Of a stretch of DNA of 21,584 bases, positions 1-11,900 are shown piece by piece (positions within the stretch are counted from its first letter, which is position 1; each line of letters opens with the position of its first letter). Source of the stretch: a virus (lineage: Duplodnaviria; Heunggongvirae; Uroviricota; Caudoviricetes). Position numbers and translations under genes: made by a program. Under the pieces are notes generated by a model that was given only the letters and a program-made list of their open reading frames with translations, ran no database searches and was not told the origin of the DNA. The DNA is taken from the IMG/VR virus record IMGVR_UViG_2534682080_000009; one strand, 5' to 3'.

Positions 1-1283
1 TTACAGACTTCTGGAAGGTTGCGCAGCTCTTACAACACGCGGTTGATCTTCCGCAGCGTCTTCCAGCGCACTTAAATCACGGTCTTTCACCTCTGGCATT
101 TTCAGCGCAGAGATTAAACCAATCACTGAATATGCCATGATCATAATGGCGATCGGATACCAGGATTCCGTCATGGTGCAGAAAATACCCGCCAGGATAG
201 GACCAAAACCGGAAGCGATAAGACCACCAATTTCTTTAGAAATAGCCATCCGGGTAAAGCGGTTTTTACAGCCGAACATTTCTGCCATGGTAATGTTTTC
301 CAGAGCAAATAATCCCAGCACCGCACAGTTATGAATCACAATCAGTGCAACCATAATGGTGCTCGGGGCATAGCTTTTATCTACAATGATAGAAAGCATT
401 GGCCATGCCAGCACAATCGCGGAGGTATTCATAATAATATACGGGATCCGGCGACCAATTTTATCGGATAACCAACCAAGGAACGGAATGGTCATAAAGC
501 CGAGAATCGAACTGATCATCAATGCATCTGTTGGAATTGCTTTGTTAAACAATAACGTCTGCACTAAATAGCCTGCAAGGAAAGTCTGAATTAACCCGGA
601 GTTACCCGCCTGACCAAAACGCAGCCCTGTTGCCAGCCAGAAGGATTTGCTCTGGAACATGCTACCAGCAGGTGCAGGTTTTGCTGTCGGTTGGTTACTG
701 TCGTTAACCTTCTCAAAGACCGGGCTTTCTTTCAGATTCATACGCAACCAGATAGCAAAGACCATCACGACAACACTCGCCAGGAACGGTATACGCCATC
801 CCCACGCCAGCAGTTCCTCTTTACTGAGAATGAAGAACATAAAGGCCCAGATTGCCGTTGCGCTCAAGGTTCCGCAGTTAGTTCCCATAGCCACAAATGA
901 GGAGATAATTCCGCGCTTACCTTTTGGCGCATATTCCGCCAGCATCGTACCGGCACCGGAAATTTCCGCACCTGCACCCAACCCCTGAATAATACGCAAC
1001 GTCACCAGCAAGATGGGTGCAAAAACACCAATCTGTGCATAGGTCGGTAACACACCAATTAAGGTGGTACAGATCCCCATCATGGTGATGGTAATAAAGA
1101 GCACTTTTTACGCCCTATTCTGTCGCCCATTTTGCCGAAAATAAATGCTCCGACAATACGCGCCACATAACCTGCACCGTAGGTTCCCATTGCCAGAATT
1201 AACGCCATTGCCGTTGATGATTCAGGAAAAAATATTTCATGAAACACTAACGCTGCGCCGAGCGAATATAACTGGAAATCCAT
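1..1283 (-). CDS. ydfJ: MFS-family metabolite:H+ symporter (host gene); reading frame broken near 1105-1109, possible pseudogene or sequencing error
   Basis: Two overlapping minus-strand ORFs (1080..1283, 67 aa; 1..1104, 367 aa) together read as one MFS transporter. The N-terminal piece carries the MFS signature GKMGDRIGRKK and the rest is polytopic hydrophobic. The frame switches at an A5 run (minus strand) at 1105-1109. The stop codon is at 1-3. The ydfJ name is inferred from the ydfK-pin-tfa-stf neighbourhood known from the E. coli K-12 Qin region, and is not verified. Confidence 0.7.
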
Positions 1284-1887
1284 AATTCACAGGTGTTTTT
1301 TCCCATCCTGTGGTTTCCTTGGCGTTTTCTAGGTTTTTTCAGATAGTTGCATTTTTTTAAAAAGCATCCTAAGTTCGATCTCAGTGTCTATCTGGGGCCT
1401 ATTTCTGTCCCATATATGCCCCAAAAAAACTCCCCAACAGATAAGTAGTTTTTTCATGGATTTATGCGTAAAATCAAGAACGGCTGGAAATCATTCAATA
1501 CTCACACTATCGAAAAATTTACCAGCCAATCGCAGCACGTTCTTGCATAAGGCGTGTCTGCGGTTTTTCAACTATTCAGATACATCACTCCCATCACATT
1601 CATTCCTCCGCATCAAAGGCATATAGGCTATATCACCTTGATATTTTTCTTTTTCAGATAAAAACTGTTATCTATGTATACTTTTAAACCCAATCCGTGT
1701 AGAGTCTCTGCATAAGATAGTTTGCAGTTGCCGCTTCAGCTTGCGCCATAAACCGCCTGATTTTTGCTGCCACCTGTTAGCATTCCTGTATACCTGAAAC
1801 GACAATGTTTATCTACGAACTTTAAGAACACCCAAGATAAAAATTGTCAACTATATCATATATAACACATTACTAATTCGAGGCTAT

Positions 1888-2001
1888 ATGAACAGCATAC
1901 TGATAATCACATCTCTCCTTATCATATTCAGCATTTTTAGTCATGCCCTAATAAAATTAGGGATTGGCATATCCAATAACCCAGACAAAACCGATGTATA
2001 A
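1888..2001 (+). CDS. candidate small hydrophobic membrane peptide (37 aa), hypothetical
   Basis: ATG at 1888 preceded by GAGG (1880-1883), stop TAA at 1999-2001. Translation [37 protein letters not shown]: one predicted transmembrane helix plus a short polar tail. It is below the 60-aa cutoff of the ORF track. AT-rich context means a chance ORF is not excluded. Confidence 0.25.
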
Positions 2002-2069
2002 GTCAACATATCCTGAATCAGACATACAATATCGCAATGAAAATCAATAATATTTTAAGGAATATCTTC

Positions 2070-2303
2070 ATGAAATCAAAAGACACCCTAAAGTGGTTCC
2101 CTGCGCAGCTTCCTGAAGTAAGAATTATCCTAGGGGATGCTGTAGTGGAAGTAGCAAAACAGGGAAGACCTATCAATACCAGAACATTGCTTGATTACAT
2201 TGAAGGAAACATAAAGAAAAAATCATGGCTGGATAACAAAGAATTATTACAAACAGCGATATCAGTTCTTAAAGACAACCAAAATTTAAATGGTAAAATG
2301 TAA
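2070..2303 (+). CDS. ydfK: YdfK/YnaE-family small prophage protein (cold-shock-associated, function unknown)
   Basis: The ORF 2037..2303 contains MKSKDTLKWFPAQLPEVRIILGDAVVEVAKQGRPINTRTLLDYIEGNIKKKSWLDNKELLQTAISVLKDNQNLNGKM, recognised as the YdfK/YnaE family. The start at 2070 is preferred because AAGGA lies 9 nt upstream, whereas the ATG at 2037 has no Shine-Dalgarno. Confidence 0.8.
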   Translation: MKSKDTLKWFPAQLPEVRIILGDAVVEVAKQGRPINTRTLLDYIEGNIKKKSWLDNKELLQTAISVLKDNQNLNGKM

Positions 2304-2619
2304 TATAATAAACTTACTTTTTTATCATTTTTCCACTTTAACAACATTTTGCTCCACTTTTCCACGACCAAACAACTTGAAATCTGGTTAAAATAACACG
2401 CAACACTATTCTTCTTCCTTGAGTCCGCCCGGAACTCGAAAAACAAACCGAGTTAAAGCCATTTTTCACAAAATCGATTTTGGGTCTCACCAAAATTACG
2501 GGGTTGCATACGCATTCGTTTATTTTCGAACGTGTACATACAAATATGCACAAAAATAATCATAATTATTTTCTGAGATGCATTATGATATGAACACCAA
2601 TTTCGTATAGAGTCTCACT

Positions 2620-3210
2620 ATGTCTCAAATTTTTGCTTACTGTCGGATATCAACGCTGGATCAGACCACCGAAAATCAACGCCGGGAAATCGAAAGTGCA
2701 GGTTTTAAAATCAAACCTCAGCAAATAATCGAAGAACACATTAGCGGCTCAGCAGCAACCAGTGAGCGTCCTGGTTTTAACCGGTTGCTTGCTCGCCTGA
2801 AATGTGGTGATCAATTGATTGTGACAAAACTGGATCGCCTTGGTTGTAATGCAATGGATATCAGGAAAACAGTGGAACAACTGACCGAAACAGGTATCAG
2901 AGTGCATTGCTTAGCATTGGGGGGCATTGACCTGACCAGTCCAACAGGAAAAATGATGATGCAAGTAATTTCAGCAGTCGCTGAATTTGAACGAGACCTT
3001 TTACTTGAACGCACTCATTCCGGGATAGTAAGAGCCCGCGGCGCAGGGAAACGTTTTGGTCGACCACCTGTGTTAAATGAAGAACAGAAACAGGCGGTAT
3101 TCGAACGAATTAAGTCAGGTGTAAGTATAAGTGCCATTGCCCGGGAATTCAAAACCTCGCGGCAAACCATTTTAAGAGCCAAAGCAAAACTTCAGACACC
3201 TGACATATAA
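2620..3210 (+). CDS. pin: Pin/Gin/Hin-family serine site-specific DNA invertase
   Basis: 196-aa ORF with the serine-recombinase N-terminal catalytic region (YCRISTLDQ with the catalytic Ser, [13 protein letters not shown]) and a C-terminal helix-turn-helix ([17 protein letters not shown]). Recognised as close to the e14/Rac/Qin Pin proteins. Confidence 0.9.
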
Positions 3211-3307
3211 AAAATAATCTCGGTGTGAGATGCTTTACGTCTTCCAAGCCCCCTTCCTTGCCGTAAATGGAAAGATACATCTAATTATAGAATTTATATG
3301 TTTTACC

Positions 3308-3883
3308 CTACGGCAGTGCTGGCCATTCAATATCCTGTGCAGTTGACGTATCAACACGGTTCAGCAATACCCGATACTTTTTCCATGCTTCCAGCAACGA
3401 GATTTCTTCCTCCGTTGCAATTTCCAGATCTGCAGCATCCTGAAGCGGCGCAATATGCTCACTGGCTACCTGCATCAGGTTGTTTTTTGTTTCTTCCGCC
3501 TCCCGGATCCGGAACAGTTTTTCTGCTTCCGTATCCTTCACCCAGGCTGTGCCGTTCCACTTCTGAAACTCCCCTTCCGGCGATAACCAGGTAACATTTT
3601 CCGGTAACGGACCGAGTTCAGAAATAAATAACGCGTCGCCGGAAGCCACGTCATAAACCGTTTTACCCCGATGATCTTCAACGAGATGCCACGATGACTC
3701 ATCACTGTTGAAAACAGCCACGAAGCCAGCCGGAATATCTGGCGGTGCAATATCGGTACTGTTTGCTGGCAGACCTGTATGAGGCGGAATATATGCATCA
3801 CCTTCACCAATAAATTCATTAGTTCCGGCCAGCAGATTATAAATTTTTATGGTCCGTGGTTGTTCACTCATTCTGAATGCCAT
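3308..3883 (-). CDS. tfa: tail fibre assembly protein (Tfa chaperone)
   Basis: 191-aa ORF directly downstream of the tail-fibre C-terminus on the same strand. Its ATG overlaps the stf stop as TAATG, with GAGG 8 nt upstream. Recognised as lambdoid Tfa from sequence and position. Confidence 0.85.
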
Positions 3884-4877
3884 TATGCAAGCCTCACAAT
3901 ATAGTTAAATGCGATGTTTTTGACGGTGTTTTCCGCGTTACCAGCAGCGTTAACGGTGATGGTGTGTCCATGTGAACCAATCGCAACGGAGTGCGTATGA
4001 GCACCAATACCGACAGTATGTGCATGTGCGCCTGCGCTTGCAGCAGTGCCGGACAGCGAGTGGGTATGAGCACCATCTGATGATGTCTTCCCTGCATTAC
4101 GAGTCTGGCCACTACCGCTTGTTGTGCTCATAATCCCCGCGCTTAGATTTGAAATCGCGGTATAACCATTAGGGAAAATGCTCGTGTTCGTGCCACCAAA
4201 TGCACCGGAACTCTTGTGTTGGTGCGCACCGGCACTATTTGCGGTCCCGCTAATACTATGGGTATGCGCCCCGGTGTTATTCGTGGATTTGGTTCCGTAA
4301 TCAAACGACGATGTGGTTTTCGTCCCCAAATCCGTACTGGATGCGCTGGCGCTGTGGGTGTGCGATTTAATGCCGTCCTGTTCCTGAGATAATACGGCCC
4401 GACCACTGGCGGGCTTGCCCTTAATCGTCCAGCCACGCATATCAGGGATCACGCCTGACGGATAAGCAACTGCAAGTTTCGGGTATGCAGATTTGTCAAA
4501 AGTCTGCCCCTGCATCAGGGCATAACCAGACGGAACGGTATCTGATGGCCACGGGATTGGTGCACCGACTGGATAAAACTCTGCAGGAGGATGAGCCGAG
4601 GTGTAAAGCTGCGCCCACGGCGACCAGTTTGCGTCGGTCGTATCCCGTCGTGAACGAATAAATGCCGGAGCATGAGCACCGCTTGTACCACTCCAGCCGA
4701 TGAGTAACTCACCTTCGCCAACGGCTGTCATCCCTTTCAGGTGAATGATATTTCCATACGCTGTTGGATATCCGTTGTTATACACCTCGTATAACTCAAG
4801 ACCTGCTGCCCCCTGCGTATTGTCTGTCAGCGCGGTTACCCGACCTTTTGAAGCCAGATTAACTGATGATACTGCTG
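3883..4877 (-). pseudogene. stf: side tail fibre protein Stf, C-terminal portion, separated from its N-terminal portion by IS3
   Basis: ORF 3883..4890 (the last 13 nt lie inside the IS3 end). The protein has Gly/Ser/Thr-rich repeats with GAHTHS/GAHAHT His motifs typical of phage distal tail-fibre tips. Its frame is continuous with the N-terminal part across the IS3 junction (codon phase checked by hand). Confidence 0.8.
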
Positions 4878-4907
4878 TGATCCTACCCACGTAATATGGA
4901 CACAGGC

Positions 4908-5774
4908 CTAAGCGAGGTTCTTGTTTTCAAATTGTTCCGGACTGAGGCCGCCACACCAACTGTGCCGCCGCCACCGATTGTAATCACATTCGATATAATT
5001 AAACACCGTTGCCCGCATTATTTCCCGGCTGATAAAGTGTTCTCCATGGATACATTCCACTTTCAGCGAATGAAAGAAGCTTTCCACGCAGGCATTATCG
5101 TAGCAGCAACCTTTTGCGCTCATACTTCCACGCAGATTATGCCGCTTCAGTTGCGCCTGATAATCTGCTGAACAGTACTGGCCTCCACGGTCCGTGTGAA
5201 CGATAACGTTCCGGGGCCTCTTACGCCGCCACAGCGCCATCTGCAGGGCATCGCAGGCCAGTTGCGCCGTCATGCGTGGCGACATTGACCAGCCAATAAC
5301 GGCACGTGACCACAGGTCAATGACCACTGCCAGATACAGCCAGCCTTCATCTGTACGTAAGTACGTGATGTCTCCTGCCCACTTCTGGTTCGGGCCACTG
5401 GCGTAAAAATCCTGCTCCAACAGATTTTCTGACACAGGCAGGCCGTGTGCGCGGTAGCTGACCGGGCTGAACTTCCGGGAGGCCTTTGCCCTCAGTCCCT
5501 GACGGCGCAGGCTTGCCGCCACGGTTTTTACGTTAAAGGGGTAACCCTGAGCACGCAGTTCATCCGTCAGGCGTGGGGCACCGTAACGCTGTTTTGACCG
5601 GGTAAAAGCCGCGAGGACAACGCTGTCGCAGTGTTGGCGGAACTGCTGACGCGTGCTTATCCTTGTCCGCCGCTGACACCACGTATACCAGCCGCTGCGG
5701 GCCACCCGGAGCACGCGGCACATTGCTTTGATGCTGAACTCAGCCTGATGTTTTTCAATAAAGACATACTTCAT
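4908..5774 (-). CDS. insF: IS3 transposase OrfB (integrase/DDE catalytic part, made as an OrfAB fusion by frameshifting)
   Basis: 288-aa ORF recognised as IS3 OrfB (DDE-type domain, e.g. WAGDITYL...HTDRGGQY). Its start overlaps the orfA stop as ATGA. Confidence 0.9.
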
Positions 5775-6070
5775 TTCAGGCGCTTCGCGAAGTATGTCGC
5801 GGCCTTTTGGAGGATAGCCAGCTCTTCATCCCGTTCTGCCAGCTGGCGTTTGAGACGTGCAATCTCGGTAGACATCTCCAGTTCACGTTCAGAAGACGTC
5901 TGCTGATTTTGCTGTTTACTGCGCCAGTTGTAGAGTTGTGATTCATACAGGCTGAGTTCACGGGCTGCGGCAGTAACACCGATGCGTTCAGCAAGCTTCA
6001 GGGCTTCACTGCGAAATTCAGGCGAATGCTGTTTACGGGGTTTTTTACTGGTTGATACTGTTTTTGTCAT
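5771..6070 (-). CDS. insE: IS3 transposase OrfA (HTH DNA-binding part)
   Basis: Translation [54 protein letters not shown]... recognised as IS3 OrfA. ATG at 6070. Confidence 0.9.
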
Positions 6071-6135
6071 GTGAGTCACCTCTGACTGAGAGTTTACTCA
6101 CTTAGCCGCGTGTCCACTATTGCTGGGTAAGATCA

Positions 6136-8218
6136 CTGTTCCACCTGACGGTAACGCCCCGATCTCTGATGCCGTTGGCTTATTTCTGGAGTTATAGTCC
6201 CTTCGCCAGCCAGGTGAATAATCTGTTCCGTGATTAATATAGGTAAACTGGGCGTTAGTTGTTCCACCACCAGTGGAGGTGGTCGGTGTGGTAATGCGGA
6301 TCGTCATCGCTGACTTTATCCCCATTACTTCAATGACAGCTCCGGCGAGATGAATATTACCGCAGTCAGTATCAGTAATGATTTTATTATTGCCATAAGA
6401 CCAGGAACCCTTGCACATCCAGTATGGATGGTTAAATGCTCCCTGAGAATCCAGCCACTCGATAAACTGTGCAGTCGTCCAGTTTCCTGTTGTTGTGCTT
6501 ACTGACCCACCGAAGGCACGGCAGGCACCAATATTTTTCGTAAAGGTATCTTTGCCAGGGATATCCGCACCGTTCTGATCTTTCTGCAGACGTTTCTCAG
6601 CATTGTCATTGGCTGCTTTTACTGCCTTTGGTGTCGCGGCAAGCGTTTCAGACGTGCTGTTGGTCGCGCTGCTTAGCTGGATTATCCCTTTCTGTGCTGT
6701 CGTTGCATCCTGTGCGGTGTATTTCCCGTTAGCCAGGTCATACGCGGCCTTAACGGCTTTTGGTGTTGCCGCCAGTGACTCGGAAGTGCTGTTAGTCGCA
6801 CTACTGAGCTGTACTATCCCCTTTTTCGTCGTGCTCGCATCCTCAAGCGCCACGGCGGATGCAATATCCTCTGCCCGTTTTGCTGCTGTCTCGGCGCGCG
6901 TTGCTGCGGATTCTGCCGTACTTTTGCTCTGAGCTGCCGCCGTCGCACTGCCAGCAGCCTCTGTCGCCTTCGTGGATGCCGTCGTGGCGCTGCTCTTCGC
7001 TGCTGACGCTTGTCTGGTCGCCTCATCTTTTGAAGCAGACGCCGATGATGCCGATGACGCCGCCGAACTGGCTGACGATGCGGCAGCCGTTTTTGAGGAT
7101 TCTGCGCTGGTTTCCGACGCTTTCGCGTTCGTTTCGGATGTCTTCGCTGCGGAAGCAGACCTCGCTGCTGCGCTGGCCTGTTCAGTGGCTTCGCCAGCCT
7201 TCGTTGTGGCTGTTGAAGCAGACGATGCAGCACTTTCTGCCGATTTTCCGGCGGCGGTGGCACTGGCTGAGGCCTGCCCGGCACTTGTTGACGCGGCACT
7301 GGCAGATAATGCAGCCGCTGTTTTTGAGTCTGCCGCAGCTGAGGCGCTCTGTCCCGCTGCCGTTTCAGAAGACCTGGCGTTCGTCTCGGACGTTTTTGCC
7401 GCCTTCGCAGAATTTGCTGCCGCCGTTGCCGAGGAAGCTGCGCTGCTGGCGCTCGAGGCTGCGTTCGTTTCTGATGATTTTGCCGCCTCTTTTGAAGCCG
7501 ACGCATCCCGGGCTGAGGTGGCAGCTTCTGACGCTTTCGTGGTCGCGGTGGATGCAGAAGTGGCTGCTGATTGTTGTGACGCTGCAGCATTCGTTTCTGA
7601 CGTTTTCGCGGCACTGGCACTGGTAGCTGCCGCGCTTTTTGAGGACTCTGCAGCGGCAGCACTTTTTGATGCTTCAGTGGCCTTTGTTGATGCCGTTCCT
7701 GCGCTGGAAGACGCTGACTGAGCCGACGAAGCGGCCTGTCCGGCTGACGTGCTGGCTGCGCGTGCTGAGCCTGCAGCATCAGTCGCATGGGTTGCCGCCT
7801 CACGGGCAGATGTGCCGGCATCGCCGGCTGACTTCTTCGCGGCTGCCGTGTTCTGTGCCACCGCGGACGCGTTACGCGCCACCTCTTCCACCATCAGTTC
7901 AAAACGGCGCAGAGCCTCCGGACGGGCATCATCCTCCGTCATGGCACCGAGAAAATCATTCAGCGTACCGGGTCGGGAATCTTCATACACGGTGATGGTC
8001 CCGGCATGTGACGGCGGGAATCCTTCCACCAACAGAATAACGCTGTACTGACCGTACTCAACGTCCATGCTGTAACGCCCGGCTTCATCCGGATTTTCTG
8101 AGGCCAGCGTGTTCACCACCACCGCGGTGCTGTTACGTTTTGCTTTCAGCTGGATTGTGCAGTTCTGTACCGGTTTTCCTGTGCCGTCTTTCAGTACACC
8201 TGAAATCTTTACTGCCAT
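6136..8218 (-). pseudogene. stf: side tail fibre protein Stf, N-terminal portion, truncated by the IS3 insertion
   Basis: ORF 6098..8224 reads MAVKISGVLKDGTGKPVQNCTIQLKA..., followed by a long Ala/Ser/Thr-rich low-complexity region and two KGI(V/I)QLSSATNSTSE(S/T)LAATPKAVKAA phage-fibre repeats. The ORF then runs 38 nt into the IS3 end before a stop. The likely start is the ATG at 8216-8218. Confidence 0.8.
6617..6832 (-). repeat. two ~75-bp imperfect direct repeats (period ~132 bp) inside stf, encoding the tail-fibre repeat motif
   Basis: DNA copies at about 6621-6694 and 6750-6828, encoding GI(I/V)QLSSATNSTSE(T/S)LAATPKA. Read directly from the sequence. Confidence 0.5.
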
Positions 8219-8282: not shown

Positions 8283-8882
8283 TCAGAACTTATAACCGAC
8301 ACCCACGATGAAACCGTCAGTGCGCCAGTCGCCACTGCCGGAGCCTTCATAAGCAATATCAATGGCCACGGATTCGGTCGGGTTAAACTGCACGCCAGCT
8401 CCCCACGCCAGAGACGTGTTGCTGTGGCGACCGTCATCACTTCCGGTCAGCACGTCGTGCGTTTTCCCCTTGTTGTCAGTTACGCGGAGATAATCCCCGG
8501 AGAAAGTCGACACACGGCTGTAAGCCATACCCGCCATCGCATACGCGCTGAACCATTCATTCACGCGCACAGACGGCCCCACCATCACGCTGAACCAGCG
8601 GTTACGCACGGAATCTTCATGCCAGCGGGTATCGCTGTAACGGGTAAGCTGGCGATTCTTGTCTCCTGCATAGCTGAATGACGTCACCAGCCCCAGTGTG
8701 TCCGTAAACTCATAACGGTATTTCACGTTAATCCCGTTAAGATCATCGCTGCCGGGAACGTTCGTCGAGGCATGAAGATACCCCGCGCTCAGCGTGGACT
8801 GATGTTCAGATGCCCATGCAGGCGCACCGGATACGGCCAGACAAATGGCTGCGGACAAAATGGCGGCATAAAGTTTACGCAT
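8283..8882 (-). CDS. lom: Lom outer-membrane protein (Ail/Lom family beta-barrel, lysogenic-conversion moron)
   Basis: 199-aa ORF with a signal peptide ([24 protein letters not shown]) and a C-terminus ending [25 protein letters not shown], recognised as Lom. It sits between J and stf as in lambda. GAGAGG Shine-Dalgarno before the ATG. Confidence 0.85.
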
Positions 8883-8904
8883 AATTACCTCTCGCTTTTC
8901 TGCA

Positions 8905-8930
8905 ATAAAAAAGGCACCATTTCTGGTGCC
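8905..8930 (-). terminator. putative intrinsic terminator between J and lom
   Basis: 7-bp stem GGCACCA/TGGTGCC (8913-8919 and 8924-8930) with a 4-nt loop, followed on the minus strand by TTTTTTATT (8912..8905). Confidence 0.45.
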
Positions 8931-8951
8931 CTTATATGGGTTATAACAATT

Positions 8952-11900
8952 TCAACGAATACTGATGCCGGAAGCGGCTTTTTTGGTCACAATCACCGTA
9001 CAGTCGGTGATATTGCCTGCCCCCTGATTGCCTTTCTGGAAAATCTTAAACTCCAGAGTGACGCTACCACCACCACTAGGCATATCAATAACTGCACTGT
9101 AACTACCGGGAATGGCCCCTTTAGTTTCTCTGGATGCGATTAATACGCCGTTTTTGCGAACTTCAAAACCATAACCCGTGTATCGCGTGCCTCCTGGGTT
9201 ATTTCCGCTCCCCGGATCGTCATACGCTATACCGTTAAAAATAATGGGCGGAATAATAATCTGGCGGTCAAAGTTATGATCATCGCTGATGGTGACTGTA
9301 ACCGTACCGTTTGGTGTTTCCGTGTTACCCCACGTACCGACTTTTTTCGGGAAGGCTTTTGATACAGCTTTAACGATATCCCCTCTGACCTGGGTCGCCT
9401 CCAGCATGCCCTTAATCGTACAGTTCTGGTTAATCGTGACATTGTTGAGCGTTCCTGAGTTCGCATTCACACTACCACTGATATCCGCATTTTTAGCGGT
9501 CAGCTTTCCGTCTGATGTCAGGGAAAATACCGGAGGACTGCCACCGCTGGTAATGGTGGGGGCCGTCAGGCGTTTCAGGAACACTTCATTCATGAATATC
9601 TGATCGCCCTGACCAACAAACATCGGCTTTTGTGTTGCCATTCGCAGGATTAATCATCGCAATCCTGTCTGCTGCCAGCAGCACCTGACTCTGCATGCCG
9701 TCAGGGGTGTTCTCAATACCGGCACCGATACCCGCAATATAAAGGCGTCCGTCCTGCATCTGCTGCAGCTTCACTGCCCACATGCTGTTCAGGTTATTAT
9801 TTGTATCAACCTGAACCTTCTGTATCTGCTGGATTGCCGCACTCTGGTCTTCCAGTTTCTTATTGACGGTCTGTGTTATTTCATTGCTGACATCCGTTAT
9901 GGTCGTCCTGATTTCAGTCAGGTCAGGCGCAAGCTGACCGTTATCAATCTGCGTCCACAGCTCCTGAGCCAGATGGGTTTTCCCTATCTCGCCTTTGAAA
10001 AAATCCAGATAGCCTGATGCATCATCACTCGGCTGACCGACAGCCTCCACGAATGCCGATTTGCCAACGGTGTTCACACTGCGAACGTAAAAATAATAAT
10101 CATGGCCCGGTTTGATATTGATACTGGCGGCTATCCAGTACAGTGCCGTACCAAGATAACGCGCGCTGGTTTCAACCTGCCTGATATCCGCAATCCGTTT
10201 TTCCGAGAACCAGAACTCAAACTGTACCGTCGGGTCATAAACCGCAAGATGCGGCGTGGCGGTTATCTGAAAATAGCCCGGCGTCAGCTCAATCCGCGAC
10301 GGCGCTGCCGGTGCGGCAATCCGGAACGATACCGACGCCGGATCGCCCTGCTGCCCCCACGCATTTACTGCCCGGACTGTCAGCCTGTAGTTCCCCAGAG
10401 CCAGTTGTGTGAAGCGGTAAGTGGTTTCCGTCGTCCGGGCCGTGCTGACCAGCCGCTCACGGCCGTCATCCGCTGCCACGGTCAGGCGAAGCAGGAAGCT
10501 CACGCCCTTCACCACCTTCGGCGTGTCCCAGCGCGCCAGCACCTGGTATTCCCCGCTGTCTGCGGTGACTTCTGCGGTCAGGTGCTGCACCGCTGGCGGC
10601 GTGACACCATTTACCGTGCCGCTCTGGTCGCCGTCAAAGTGCGCCCCGTTATCCACGATGGCCTCTTTTTCCGGTACATGCTGCACGGCGGTGATGGCAT
10701 ACGTGCCGTCGTCGTTCTCACGGATACTCACGCAGCGGAACAGGCGCTGGCGCAACGTCGACAGCTTCAGCCCCCATACGCTGTATTCAGCAACGCCGTC
10801 AGGAACACGGCTCACTTTCACCTTCACGCCGTCGGTGACGGACTGAACCTCCACGCTGACCGGACTCCCCTGCCCGTCAACCAGGCTTATCAGCGTGGTG
10901 CCGGAAGATGGCAGCGTGATTTCACGGTCGAGCGTCAGCGTCCGGGTCTGGCTGTTTACCGCCAGCACGCGCCCGCCGGTGCGGATACCGGCATAGTCAT
11001 CATCGCAGATTTCAATGACATCGCCCGGTACATGGCGAAGCCCTTCGGCACCCACGCTGAAGTCCACGGTCTGCGTTTCCAGCAGTTCTGTTTTAATCAG
11101 CCACAGCCCGGCGCGGTGTGCCTGCCCCCGGCTGGTACAGCCAAAAGCATCCATCTTCGTGACGTTACGACCGTAACGGGCAATGGCCCGCGTGTCCTCC
11201 ACAAGCTCTGTCGCCGTCTCCCAGCCGTTATTCGGGTCAATCCAGTTCACCTCAACGGCATTATGGCGGTCCTTCAGGGCGCTGAAGCTGTAGCGGAACG
11301 GCGCACCATCATCCGGCATCACCACATTACTGCGGTTATAGGTCCACACCTTATCCGACGGTCGGTCCTGCACGAACGTCAGCGTCTGCCCGTTCCATAC
11401 CGGCATACAGCGCATCGCAGAGCAGAAATCACTGAGCACATCCCACGCCTTGCGCTGTGTGGTCAGGTACGCATTACAGGTGATGCGCGGCTCTGTGCCG
11501 CCAAAACCGTCCGGCACCGACTGATCGCAATGCTGGCCGATGACATACAGCGCCCATTTGTCCACATCCGCCGCACCAAGACGTTTCCCCATGCCGTAGC
11601 GCGGATGGGTCAGCATATCCCACAGACACCAGGCCATGTTGTTGCTGTATGCTGGCTTAAACGTTCCGTCCCAGATACCGCTGTATTGCCGCGTCTGCGG
11701 GTTATAGTTCGACGGCACCTGCAGAATGCGCCCGCGCAGATGATAATTACGGCTCACCTGCTGGCTGCCGAACTGCTCCGAATCCACCTGCACGCCGACC
11801 AGTGCCGTGTTCGGGTAGCACTGTTTCACATCGATGATTTCGGTGTATGACGACCAGAGCGTTTTGTTCTGCAGCTGGTCTGTGGTGCTGTCCGGCGTCA

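Follow-up and report, generated by a model that had tools for sequence, protein, structure and literature searches.

A Qin-type lambdoid prophage with IS3 inserted in its side tail fibre gene, stf

Gene content of the locus

The stretch of DNA analysed here (hereafter the window) comprises 21,584 nucleotides of the IMG/VR virus record IMGVR_UViG_2534682080_000009. At ydfJ, the locus carries a Qin-type lambdoid prophage whose gene order, ydfJ'-ynfT-ydfK-pinQ-tfaQ-stf-lom-J, is that of annotated Qin-type prophages. Its side tail fibre gene, stf, is split in two by a complete copy of IS3; the features are, by position:

2620..3210, + strand: pinQ, serine DNA invertase/recombinase, 196 aa (Pfam Resolvase, E = 2.5e-36; HTH_7)
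3308..3883, - strand: tfaQ, tail fibre assembly protein, intact, 191 aa (Pfam Caudo_TAP, E = 3.6e-43)
3883..4877, - strand: stf 3' fragment, remainder of codon 695 to codon 1024 plus stop (Pfam Collar, E = 1.1e-11; Phage_fiber)
4875..4877: target-site duplication, copy 1, CTG on the + strand, read directly
4878..6135, - strand: IS3, complete, 1258 bp, with transposase and stf in the same direction
4878..4917, - strand: IS3 IRR, from the inverted-repeat comparison and the ends read directly
4908..5774, - strand: IS3 orfB, 288 aa, DDE integrase-type catalytic domain (Pfam rve, E = 5.1e-28; rve_2; HTH_21)
5771..6070, - strand: IS3 orfA, 99 aa, helix-turn-helix (HTH) (Pfam HTH_Tnp_1, E = 5.7e-10)
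5804..5808, - strand: A AAA G slippery motif, predicted -1 programmed frameshift joining orfA and orfB
6096..6135, - strand: IS3 IRL, TGATCTTACCCAGCAATAGTGGACAC..., 28 of 40 positions equal to the reverse complement of the other terminus
6136..6138: target-site duplication, copy 2, CTG on the + strand, read directly
6136..8218, - strand: stf 5' fragment, codons 1-694 and the first base of codon 695 (Pfam phage_tail_N, E = 1.6e-71; Phage_fiber_2, E = 1.8e-37)
8283..8882, - strand: lom-type outer membrane protein gene (Pfam Ail_Lom, E = 1.4e-119)

The J - lom - stf - tfa order of a late-operon end is found here, with stf placed between the Ail_Lom and Caudo_TAP matches, and annotated collinear loci agree. 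The tfaQ product is identical to annotated TfaQ (WP_000885611.1) at 191/191 residues. The lom-type gene lies upstream of stf, the same as in lambda. Outside the insertion, pinQ is convergent with tfaQ, and collinear genomes carry it as an annotated pinQ.

Two further readings of this region were considered and are not retained. One is an invertible segment controlled by pinQ and made of the stf 3' end and tfaQ, that is, a host-range switch of the Gin/Cin/Pin type; no alternative stf-C/tfa cassette was found between pinQ and tfaQ, and neither the stf 3' end nor tfaQ is framed by convincing inverted repeats. The other is a hybrid outward promoter at the right end of IS3 driving 3' stf and tfaQ. 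A promoter consensus scan gave zero matches at the junction, and a regional total not above that of shuffled controls.

The element, its target site and the reconstructed gene

The earlier note had recognized a complete IS3 at 4878-6135, and full-length comparison bears this out: over all 1258 bp the element has 100% identity with copies carried by thousands of E. coli genomes and bearing the annotation 'IS3-like element IS3 family transposase'. Its exact ends can be read directly. On the left, the stf flank ...GATGATACTGCTG runs to 4877 and IS3 starts at 4878 with TGATCCTACCCA; on the right, the last letters of IS3, ...GGGTAAGATCA, extend up to 6135 and are followed by CTGTTCC from 6136. The termini are TG...CA, within imperfect inverted repeats that read TGATC(T/C)TACCCA... 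on both sides and match at 28 of the 40 outermost positions.

Both reading frames of the element are intact. The ATG of orfA is at IS3 nt 66 and its stop codon finishes at IS3 nt 365; orfB lies in the -1 frame relative to orfA (frame offset 2), and the A AAA G motif (IS3 nt 328-332) is situated within orfA, 5' of the orfA/orfB overlap. Frameshifting is predicted here, 'programmed frameshift' being the RefSeq annotation on identical IS3 copies. One of these, in strain XJW9B263, has 0 mismatches with the window copy and is annotated as an intact transposase with programmed frameshift. Length and identity, TG...CA repeats, orfA/orfB layout and 3-bp duplication are all those of IS3 (IS3 family, IS3 group), and, on its sequence, the window copy is apparently active. 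Such elements are common: 3817 of 5426 complete RefSeq E. coli genomes contain at least one IS3 place covering at least 80% of the query.

A CTG flanks the element on each side, which taken alone is little proof of a target-site duplication, because a 3-bp repeat matches by chance about 1 time in 64. When 4878..6138 is removed from the window, however, the 1000 bp spanning the new junction are 100% identical to those of over 40 complete genomes of E. coli (strains W and 88-3493 among them), and these empty sites have one CTG only. The repeat is therefore a real target-site duplication, as had been claimed; the possibility that the IS3 ends would map elsewhere and leave no direct repeat is contradicted by exact ends with perfect CTG flanks. 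For 500 bp on either side of the junction, the flanks are identical to those of intact alleles.

Removal of the element together with one CTG yields a single ORF of 3075 nt, from an ATG at 8218 to a stop at 3883, encoding 1024 aa. The insertion point falls after the first base of codon 695 of this 1024-codon gene. Against an intact annotated Stf of the same length (WP_000279080.1), the joined Stf shows 1020/1024 identical residues and no gaps. Isolated lambdoid phages, for example mEp460_ev081 and PhiR42_1, have side tail fibre genes that also match its residues 1-1024, so that the colinearity proposed earlier for the joined gene holds throughout. The domains are those of a lambdoid Stf: a prophage tail-fibre domain at the N terminus, then fibre repeats, and a collar and His-rich region at the C terminus. 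The earlier note was right about a single frame and slightly off about its length, which it put at about 1027 codons (1025 are found, stop included). Its description of the insertion as in-phase applies to the restored frame and not to the site, which breaks codon 695 internally rather than at a codon boundary; in any case this is no independent finding, because the frame is regained whenever an insertion sequence and one of its two duplication copies are deleted.

At the DNA level, the nearest full-length intact stf alleles are 99.5% identical. None at 100% was found among full-length intact alleles, because of a mosaic patch at 7229-7459. There, 14 clustered substitutions make the sequence more like a paralogous stf of another prophage than the Qin-type allele is; more than 1 kb separates this patch from the insertion, and the patch affects neither the length nor the frame of stf.

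As it stands, the interrupted stf ORF runs into the IS3 IRL, where translation meets a stop at 6098-6100. The predicted product has 706 aa, the last 12 being encoded by IS3 (VILPSNSGHAAK). The 3' fragment, with its collar domain and His-rich fibre repeats, corresponds to the predicted receptor-binding part.

Origin of the insertion and alternative explanations

We are highly confident that the locus results from one IS3 transposition into stf of a Qin-type lambdoid prophage at ydfJ, with duplication of the 3-bp CTG, and found no sequence evidence against it. In this event, a complete 1258-bp IS3 inserted after the first base of codon 695, in the orientation of stf, and its CTG target was duplicated in the process. 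Translation of stf now stops 12 codons inside the left end of IS3; the predicted product is a 706-aa N-terminal fragment with the tail-attachment domain and shaft repeats and without the C-terminal receptor-binding region. No other rearrangement accompanied it: on both sides the sequence follows intact alleles colinearly, and tfaQ, the chaperone gene downstream, is untouched.

The occupied allele is rare. A 1861-bp query spanning both junctions had no match in the 5,426 complete RefSeq E. coli genomes, the exact junction strings were absent from GTDB species representatives and from JGI metagenomes, and the 706-aa Stf-IS3 fusion ORF was absent from the protein-position index. A literature search for IS3 within side tail fibre genes returned nothing specific. 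The IS3 has no differences from other copies, the empty sites match its flanks at 100%, the two CTG copies agree perfectly and the junction is missing from every collection searched; the insertion is therefore recent and lineage-specific. This agrees with the earlier view of a simple, recent insertional inactivation rather than an old rearrangement, as does the gap-free alignment of the joined Stf.

Could the structure have arisen otherwise? An assembler might have misplaced a repeated IS3 copy, stf being intact in the real genome; the nine single-base indels that separate the window from its closest relative do suggest a lower-quality assembly, and the exact stf-IS3 junction occurs in no other collection. 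However, both junctions fall exactly at the IS3 termini, with a perfect 3-bp duplication of a sequence that is single in the empty site, and a misjoin driven by a repeat would create no such duplication. Moreover, the window event is plausible because independent, properly annotated IS3 insertions occur in stf of finished genomes, and we therefore regard an artefact as very improbable. Still harder to believe is an old or complex rearrangement, in which the two stf pieces come from different fibre genes, or an IS3-mediated adjacent deletion or inversion has taken place, such that removing the element rebuilds no real gene. It is true that stf genes are mosaic and that the 14-substitution patch resembles a paralogous stf, but this patch is remote from the insertion and without effect on length or frame, whereas the 500 bp on each side of the junction are 100% identical to intact alleles and the joined stf is colinear and gap-free over its 1024 codons. 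The empty-site and joined-Stf alignments already refute it.

A different question, compatible with a single IS3 transposition, is whether the stf-tfaQ region is a hotspot for IS3, or whether loss of side fibres is selected in lysogens. Three independent IS3 insertions, with duplications CTG, CAC and CCG, are found within a 3.65-kb stf-tfaQ stretch of Qin-type prophages. Nine complete genomes (XJW9B263, 6409, 10R, VE-F5, Ec73552, EC23, 45E, EM03-18-08 and 23CRST028) have an IS3 in stf, 92 bp from the window site and in the opposite orientation, with the duplication CAC; in the UC4224 group, IS3 lies inside tfaQ, with the duplication CCG. Both share with the window the prophage type, the chromosomal site, the IS3 itself (0-1 mismatches) and a 3-bp duplication, and the consequence is alike, a split tail fibre or chaperone gene. 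They differ from it in position and triplet, and in the stf case also in orientation, and are events independent of the window insertion. Nevertheless, the nine genomes represent one shared event and not nine, and the three target triplets have no obvious common motif. There are some 18,500 IS3 places, spread over 4,686 genomes, and by a rough estimate chance and the tolerance of non-essential DNA to insertions would together produce about this small number of hits in 3.65 kb of dispensable prophage; likewise, the chance that one pair among three events in 3.65 kb falls within about 93 bp is roughly 0.15. We thus consider it unlikely that IS3 strikes stf-tfaQ of Qin-type prophages above chance, whether by local target preference or by selection in lysogens against side fibres. 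If such an excess did exist, the window insertion would illustrate how a prophage tail module is convergently domesticated.

Consequences and comparison with known systems

Because of polarity, 3' stf and tfaQ are probably poorly expressed, and virions, if made, would be without side fibres. Precise excision had been expected to restore an intact stf-tfa pair. On paper it would, the joined Stf having 1024 aa and TfaQ being intact at 191/191 residues, but IS3 is not normally excised precisely: its transposition is of the copy-out/paste-in type, and precise loss would be a rare host-mediated event. Nor would restoration necessarily give a working phage, because J, K, L, the tape measure gene H and V are broken by single-base frameshifts (eight of the nine indels in the window), unless these are sequencing errors. 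They may be such errors, as the nine indels, which lie at 1104, 9628, 13555, 14415, 15604, 16679, 16705, 18611 and 18918, may point to an error-prone assembly. Alternatively, the prophage may have been decaying already, IS3 being one lesion among several and not the inactivating event.

The insertion, an ordinary gene knockout, matters little outside annotation. There, a single interrupted stf pseudogene should replace the two 'tail fibre' ORFs on either side of IS3, which itself should be entered as a mobile element together with its CTG duplication. Whether the site is occupied or empty could also be used as a lineage marker of the source strain. The case otherwise joins the ordinary picture of E. 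coli prophage decay through insertion sequences. It is relevant to phage biology only if the prophage is inducible, in which case virions should be without side fibres, like those of laboratory lambda.

Compared with E. coli IS3, the type element of the IS3 family, the window copy is alike in sequence, length, TG...CA ends, inverted repeats, ORF frames, slippery site and 3-bp duplication. The insertion site is the sole difference, and this site is absent from every collection searched. The prophage itself presumably resembles Qin of E. coli K-12 in its ydfJ integration region and in the right-end order ydfK-pinQ-tfaQ-stf. In K-12, Qin is without most of its tail genes and only an stf remnant survives, whereas the full head-tail module is kept here, as far as the window edge.

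The closest parallel for the lesion is lambda PaPa, in which stf is knocked out relative to Ur-lambda. As in the window, the N-terminal and C-terminal parts end up in separate ORFs, with tfa downstream of them; a frameshift mutation is responsible in lambda PaPa, a 1258-bp insertion sequence here. Lambda Stf has about 774 aa, and the window Stf, with 1024 aa, has a much longer Ala/Ser-rich shaft. The side fibres of lambda are dispensable, in that they speed adsorption to OmpC+ cells and leave plaque counts unchanged (PMC12617516). By analogy with lambda PaPa, loss of the side fibres in the present prophage would slow adsorption without preventing infection.

An IS3 copy within stf of a Qin-type prophage

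The side tail fibre gene stf is knocked out here by an ordinary IS3 insertion, as the earlier note had observed, and its interpretation is supported on the main points. Window 4700-6300 was read directly and the junctions extracted: the left flank (...GATGATACTGCTG) ends at 4877, the first bases of IS3 (TGATCCTACCCA) start at 4878, the last (...GGGTAAGATCA) run up to 6135, and the right flank (CTGTTCC) begins at 6136. The element and both CTG copies thus lie exactly where they had been placed.

IS3 and associated features (window coordinates)
4878..6135: IS3, 1258 bp (direct reading of the junctions)
4875-4877 and 6136-6138: copies of the CTG target duplication (direct reading)
5771..6070, minus strand: orfA, 99 aa, Pfam HTH_Tnp_1
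4908..5774, minus strand: orfB, 288 aa, rve integrase-core domains, in the -1 frame relative to orfA
5804..5808, minus strand: A AAA G slippery motif, inside the element
3308..3883: tfaQ, 191/191 identical to the annotated chaperone

The identification as IS3 is borne out by a search of 5,426 complete E. coli genomes, where the 1258 bp match, at full length and 100% identity, copies annotated 'IS3-like element IS3 family transposase'. IS3 matches occur in 4,686 of the 5,426, and a place with at least 80% query coverage in 3,817. The termini are TG...CA, and the imperfect inverted repeats agree at 28 of 40 positions. Given this anatomy, and its full agreement (no mismatch) with the IS3 copy of strain XJW9B263, whose transposase RefSeq records as intact, with a programmed frameshift, the element is complete and presumably active.

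The insertion lies in a lambdoid prophage of Qin type, integrated at ydfJ. E. coli W and 88-3493 have annotated loci collinear with it, in which ydfI and a truncated ydfJ are followed by ynfT, ydfK, pinQ, tfaQ, the tail fibre gene (3075 nt), lom and J, and then by the other genes of a tail and head module resembling that of lambda. In the window, the prophage meets the chromosome at the truncated ydfJ (1-1284, minus strand); beyond it come ynfT and the cold-shock gene ydfK (2070-2303, plus strand), matching annotated Qin-type loci. Against 88-3493 this ydfJ shows 16 substitutions, none of which appears against XJW9B263, the closer relative on that side. The pinQ serine invertase gene (2620-3210, plus strand) is convergent with tfaQ, and no invertible host-range segment is apparent; a pinQ-controlled one was rejected, as we found neither alternative stf/tfa cassettes nor bracketing inverted repeats.

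Removal of IS3 and one CTG gives an stf ORF from ATG at 8218 to a stop at 3883 (3075 nt), that is 1024 codons plus stop rather than the roughly 1027 proposed earlier. Its 1024-aa product aligns without gaps to the intact Stf of 88-3493 (WP_000279080.1; 1020/1024). The 5' fragment carries the Pfam domains phage_tail_N and Phage_fiber_2, and the 3' fragment Collar and Phage_fiber. Genes of isolated lambdoid phages annotated side tail fibre or tail fibre protein, spanning about 3.07 kb (mEp460_ev081, PhiR42_1, PhiR26_1 and others), match residues 1-1024, the Ala/Ser-rich mid-shaft being uncovered in this comparison, most likely masked by the BLAST low-complexity filter. Neither of the two outcomes that the earlier note named as refuting it, a loss of colinearity or displaced IS3 ends, was observed.

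The empty site and the age of the insertion

A 3-bp match on both flanks arises by chance about once in 64, so that the decisive test of the duplication is the unoccupied site. We removed 4878..6138 (IS3 and one CTG) and joined 500 bp from each side into a 1000-bp query. It matched in a single piece, with 100% identity across the junction, in more than 40 complete genomes (E. coli W, LY180, KO11FL and 88-3493 among them), under CDSs annotated phage tail protein or prophage tail fibre. The pre-insertion allele therefore exists, with a single CTG, and the flanks are unaltered since the insertion. An assembly artefact that misplaced IS3 in stf is unlikely, since a misjoin via a repeat would not leave two copies of a triplet that the empty site has only once. 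An old or complex rearrangement, already disfavoured by the earlier note, is excluded by the gap-free colinearity of the joined stf with intact alleles.

The insertion is simple, with no accompanying deletion or inversion. Its sequence context (an undiverged IS3, flanks 100% identical to empty sites, a perfect duplication and a junction absent elsewhere) points to a recent event. A 1861-bp junction-spanning query found the same structure in none of the 5,426 complete genomes; only four records reached at least 80% coverage, all arranged otherwise. The exact junction strings were absent from GTDB species representatives and from JGI metagenomes, and the Stf-IS3 fusion ORF had no entry in the gene-position index.

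Other insertions, indels and substitutions

An IS3 in the same stf allele is common to nine complete genomes (XJW9B263, 6409, EM03-18-08, 10R, VE-F5, Ec73552, EC23, 45E and 23CRST028; H121-H129). It lies 92 bp from the window site (8787-10044 of their comparison locus, L003; window ~4783-4785), in opposite orientation; the duplication is CAC, and the copy shows 0 mismatches to the window IS3. UC4224 and two relatives carry one in tfaQ (5006-6263 of comparison locus L002; window ~3553-3555), oriented as in the window, with duplication CCG and 1 mismatch. These are independent events in other lineages. The collection has about 18,500 IS3 places and the target is dispensable; on a rough estimate, three events at stf-tfaQ are no more than chance would give, and a hotspot or selection there is quite improbable.

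Nine single-base indels separate the window from the nearest intact prophage, to which it is 99.8% identical.

Single-base indels (window coordinates)
1104: ydfJ remnant
9628: J
13555: K-like C40 peptidase gene
14415: L
15604, 16679 and 16705: tape measure gene
18611 and 18918: major tail gene V

The eight in tail genes frameshift all five genes, which are split in the ORF list. These indels may be real, reflecting multi-gene decay of the tail module; the prophage would then be multiply defective, with IS3 just one lesion among several. With the ydfJ remnant and a patch in stf set aside, however, substitutions number only about eight, an indel-to-substitution ratio unusually high for real decay, and seven of the nine indels fall in short homopolymer runs. 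We therefore lean towards sequencing error, which would also fit the absence of this genome from the RefSeq complete set. The stf patch, in the Ala/Ser-rich shaft (7229-7459), holds 14 clustered substitutions relative to the closest Qin-type alleles. Other genomes have a second stf copy, located elsewhere on the chromosome, and the patch resembles that copy more (98.6%); this suggests a small gene-conversion or mosaic patch unrelated to IS3.

Consequences for the tail fibre

Upstream of IS3, 694 full codons and one base of stf remain, the insertion not being at a codon boundary. The frame continues through 12 codons of the IS3 left end (VILPSNSGHAAK) to a stop at 6098-6100, giving a predicted product of 706 aa devoid of the receptor-binding C-terminus. 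The earlier description of the insertion as 'in-phase' holds in that the frame is restored on removal, but removing any IS with one duplication copy gives back the original frame, so this is not a separate finding. Restoration of stf-tfa by precise excision, also proposed, is formally correct; however, IS3 transposes by copy-out/paste-in, the donor copy staying in place, so that losing it exactly would take a rare event mediated by the host.

tfaQ is intact. Both it and the 3' fragment of stf are probably poorly expressed through polarity; we found no promoter-like site at the right end of IS3 or in its flank. This knockout is already known in kind, and is of use mainly as a strain marker and for correct annotation. 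If lambda is a guide, phage without side fibres would adsorb more slowly but remain infective: laboratory lambda lacks them through a frameshift in stf, and the side fibres of Ur-lambda make adsorption to OmpC+ cells 10-30-fold faster with titre unchanged (PMC12617516).
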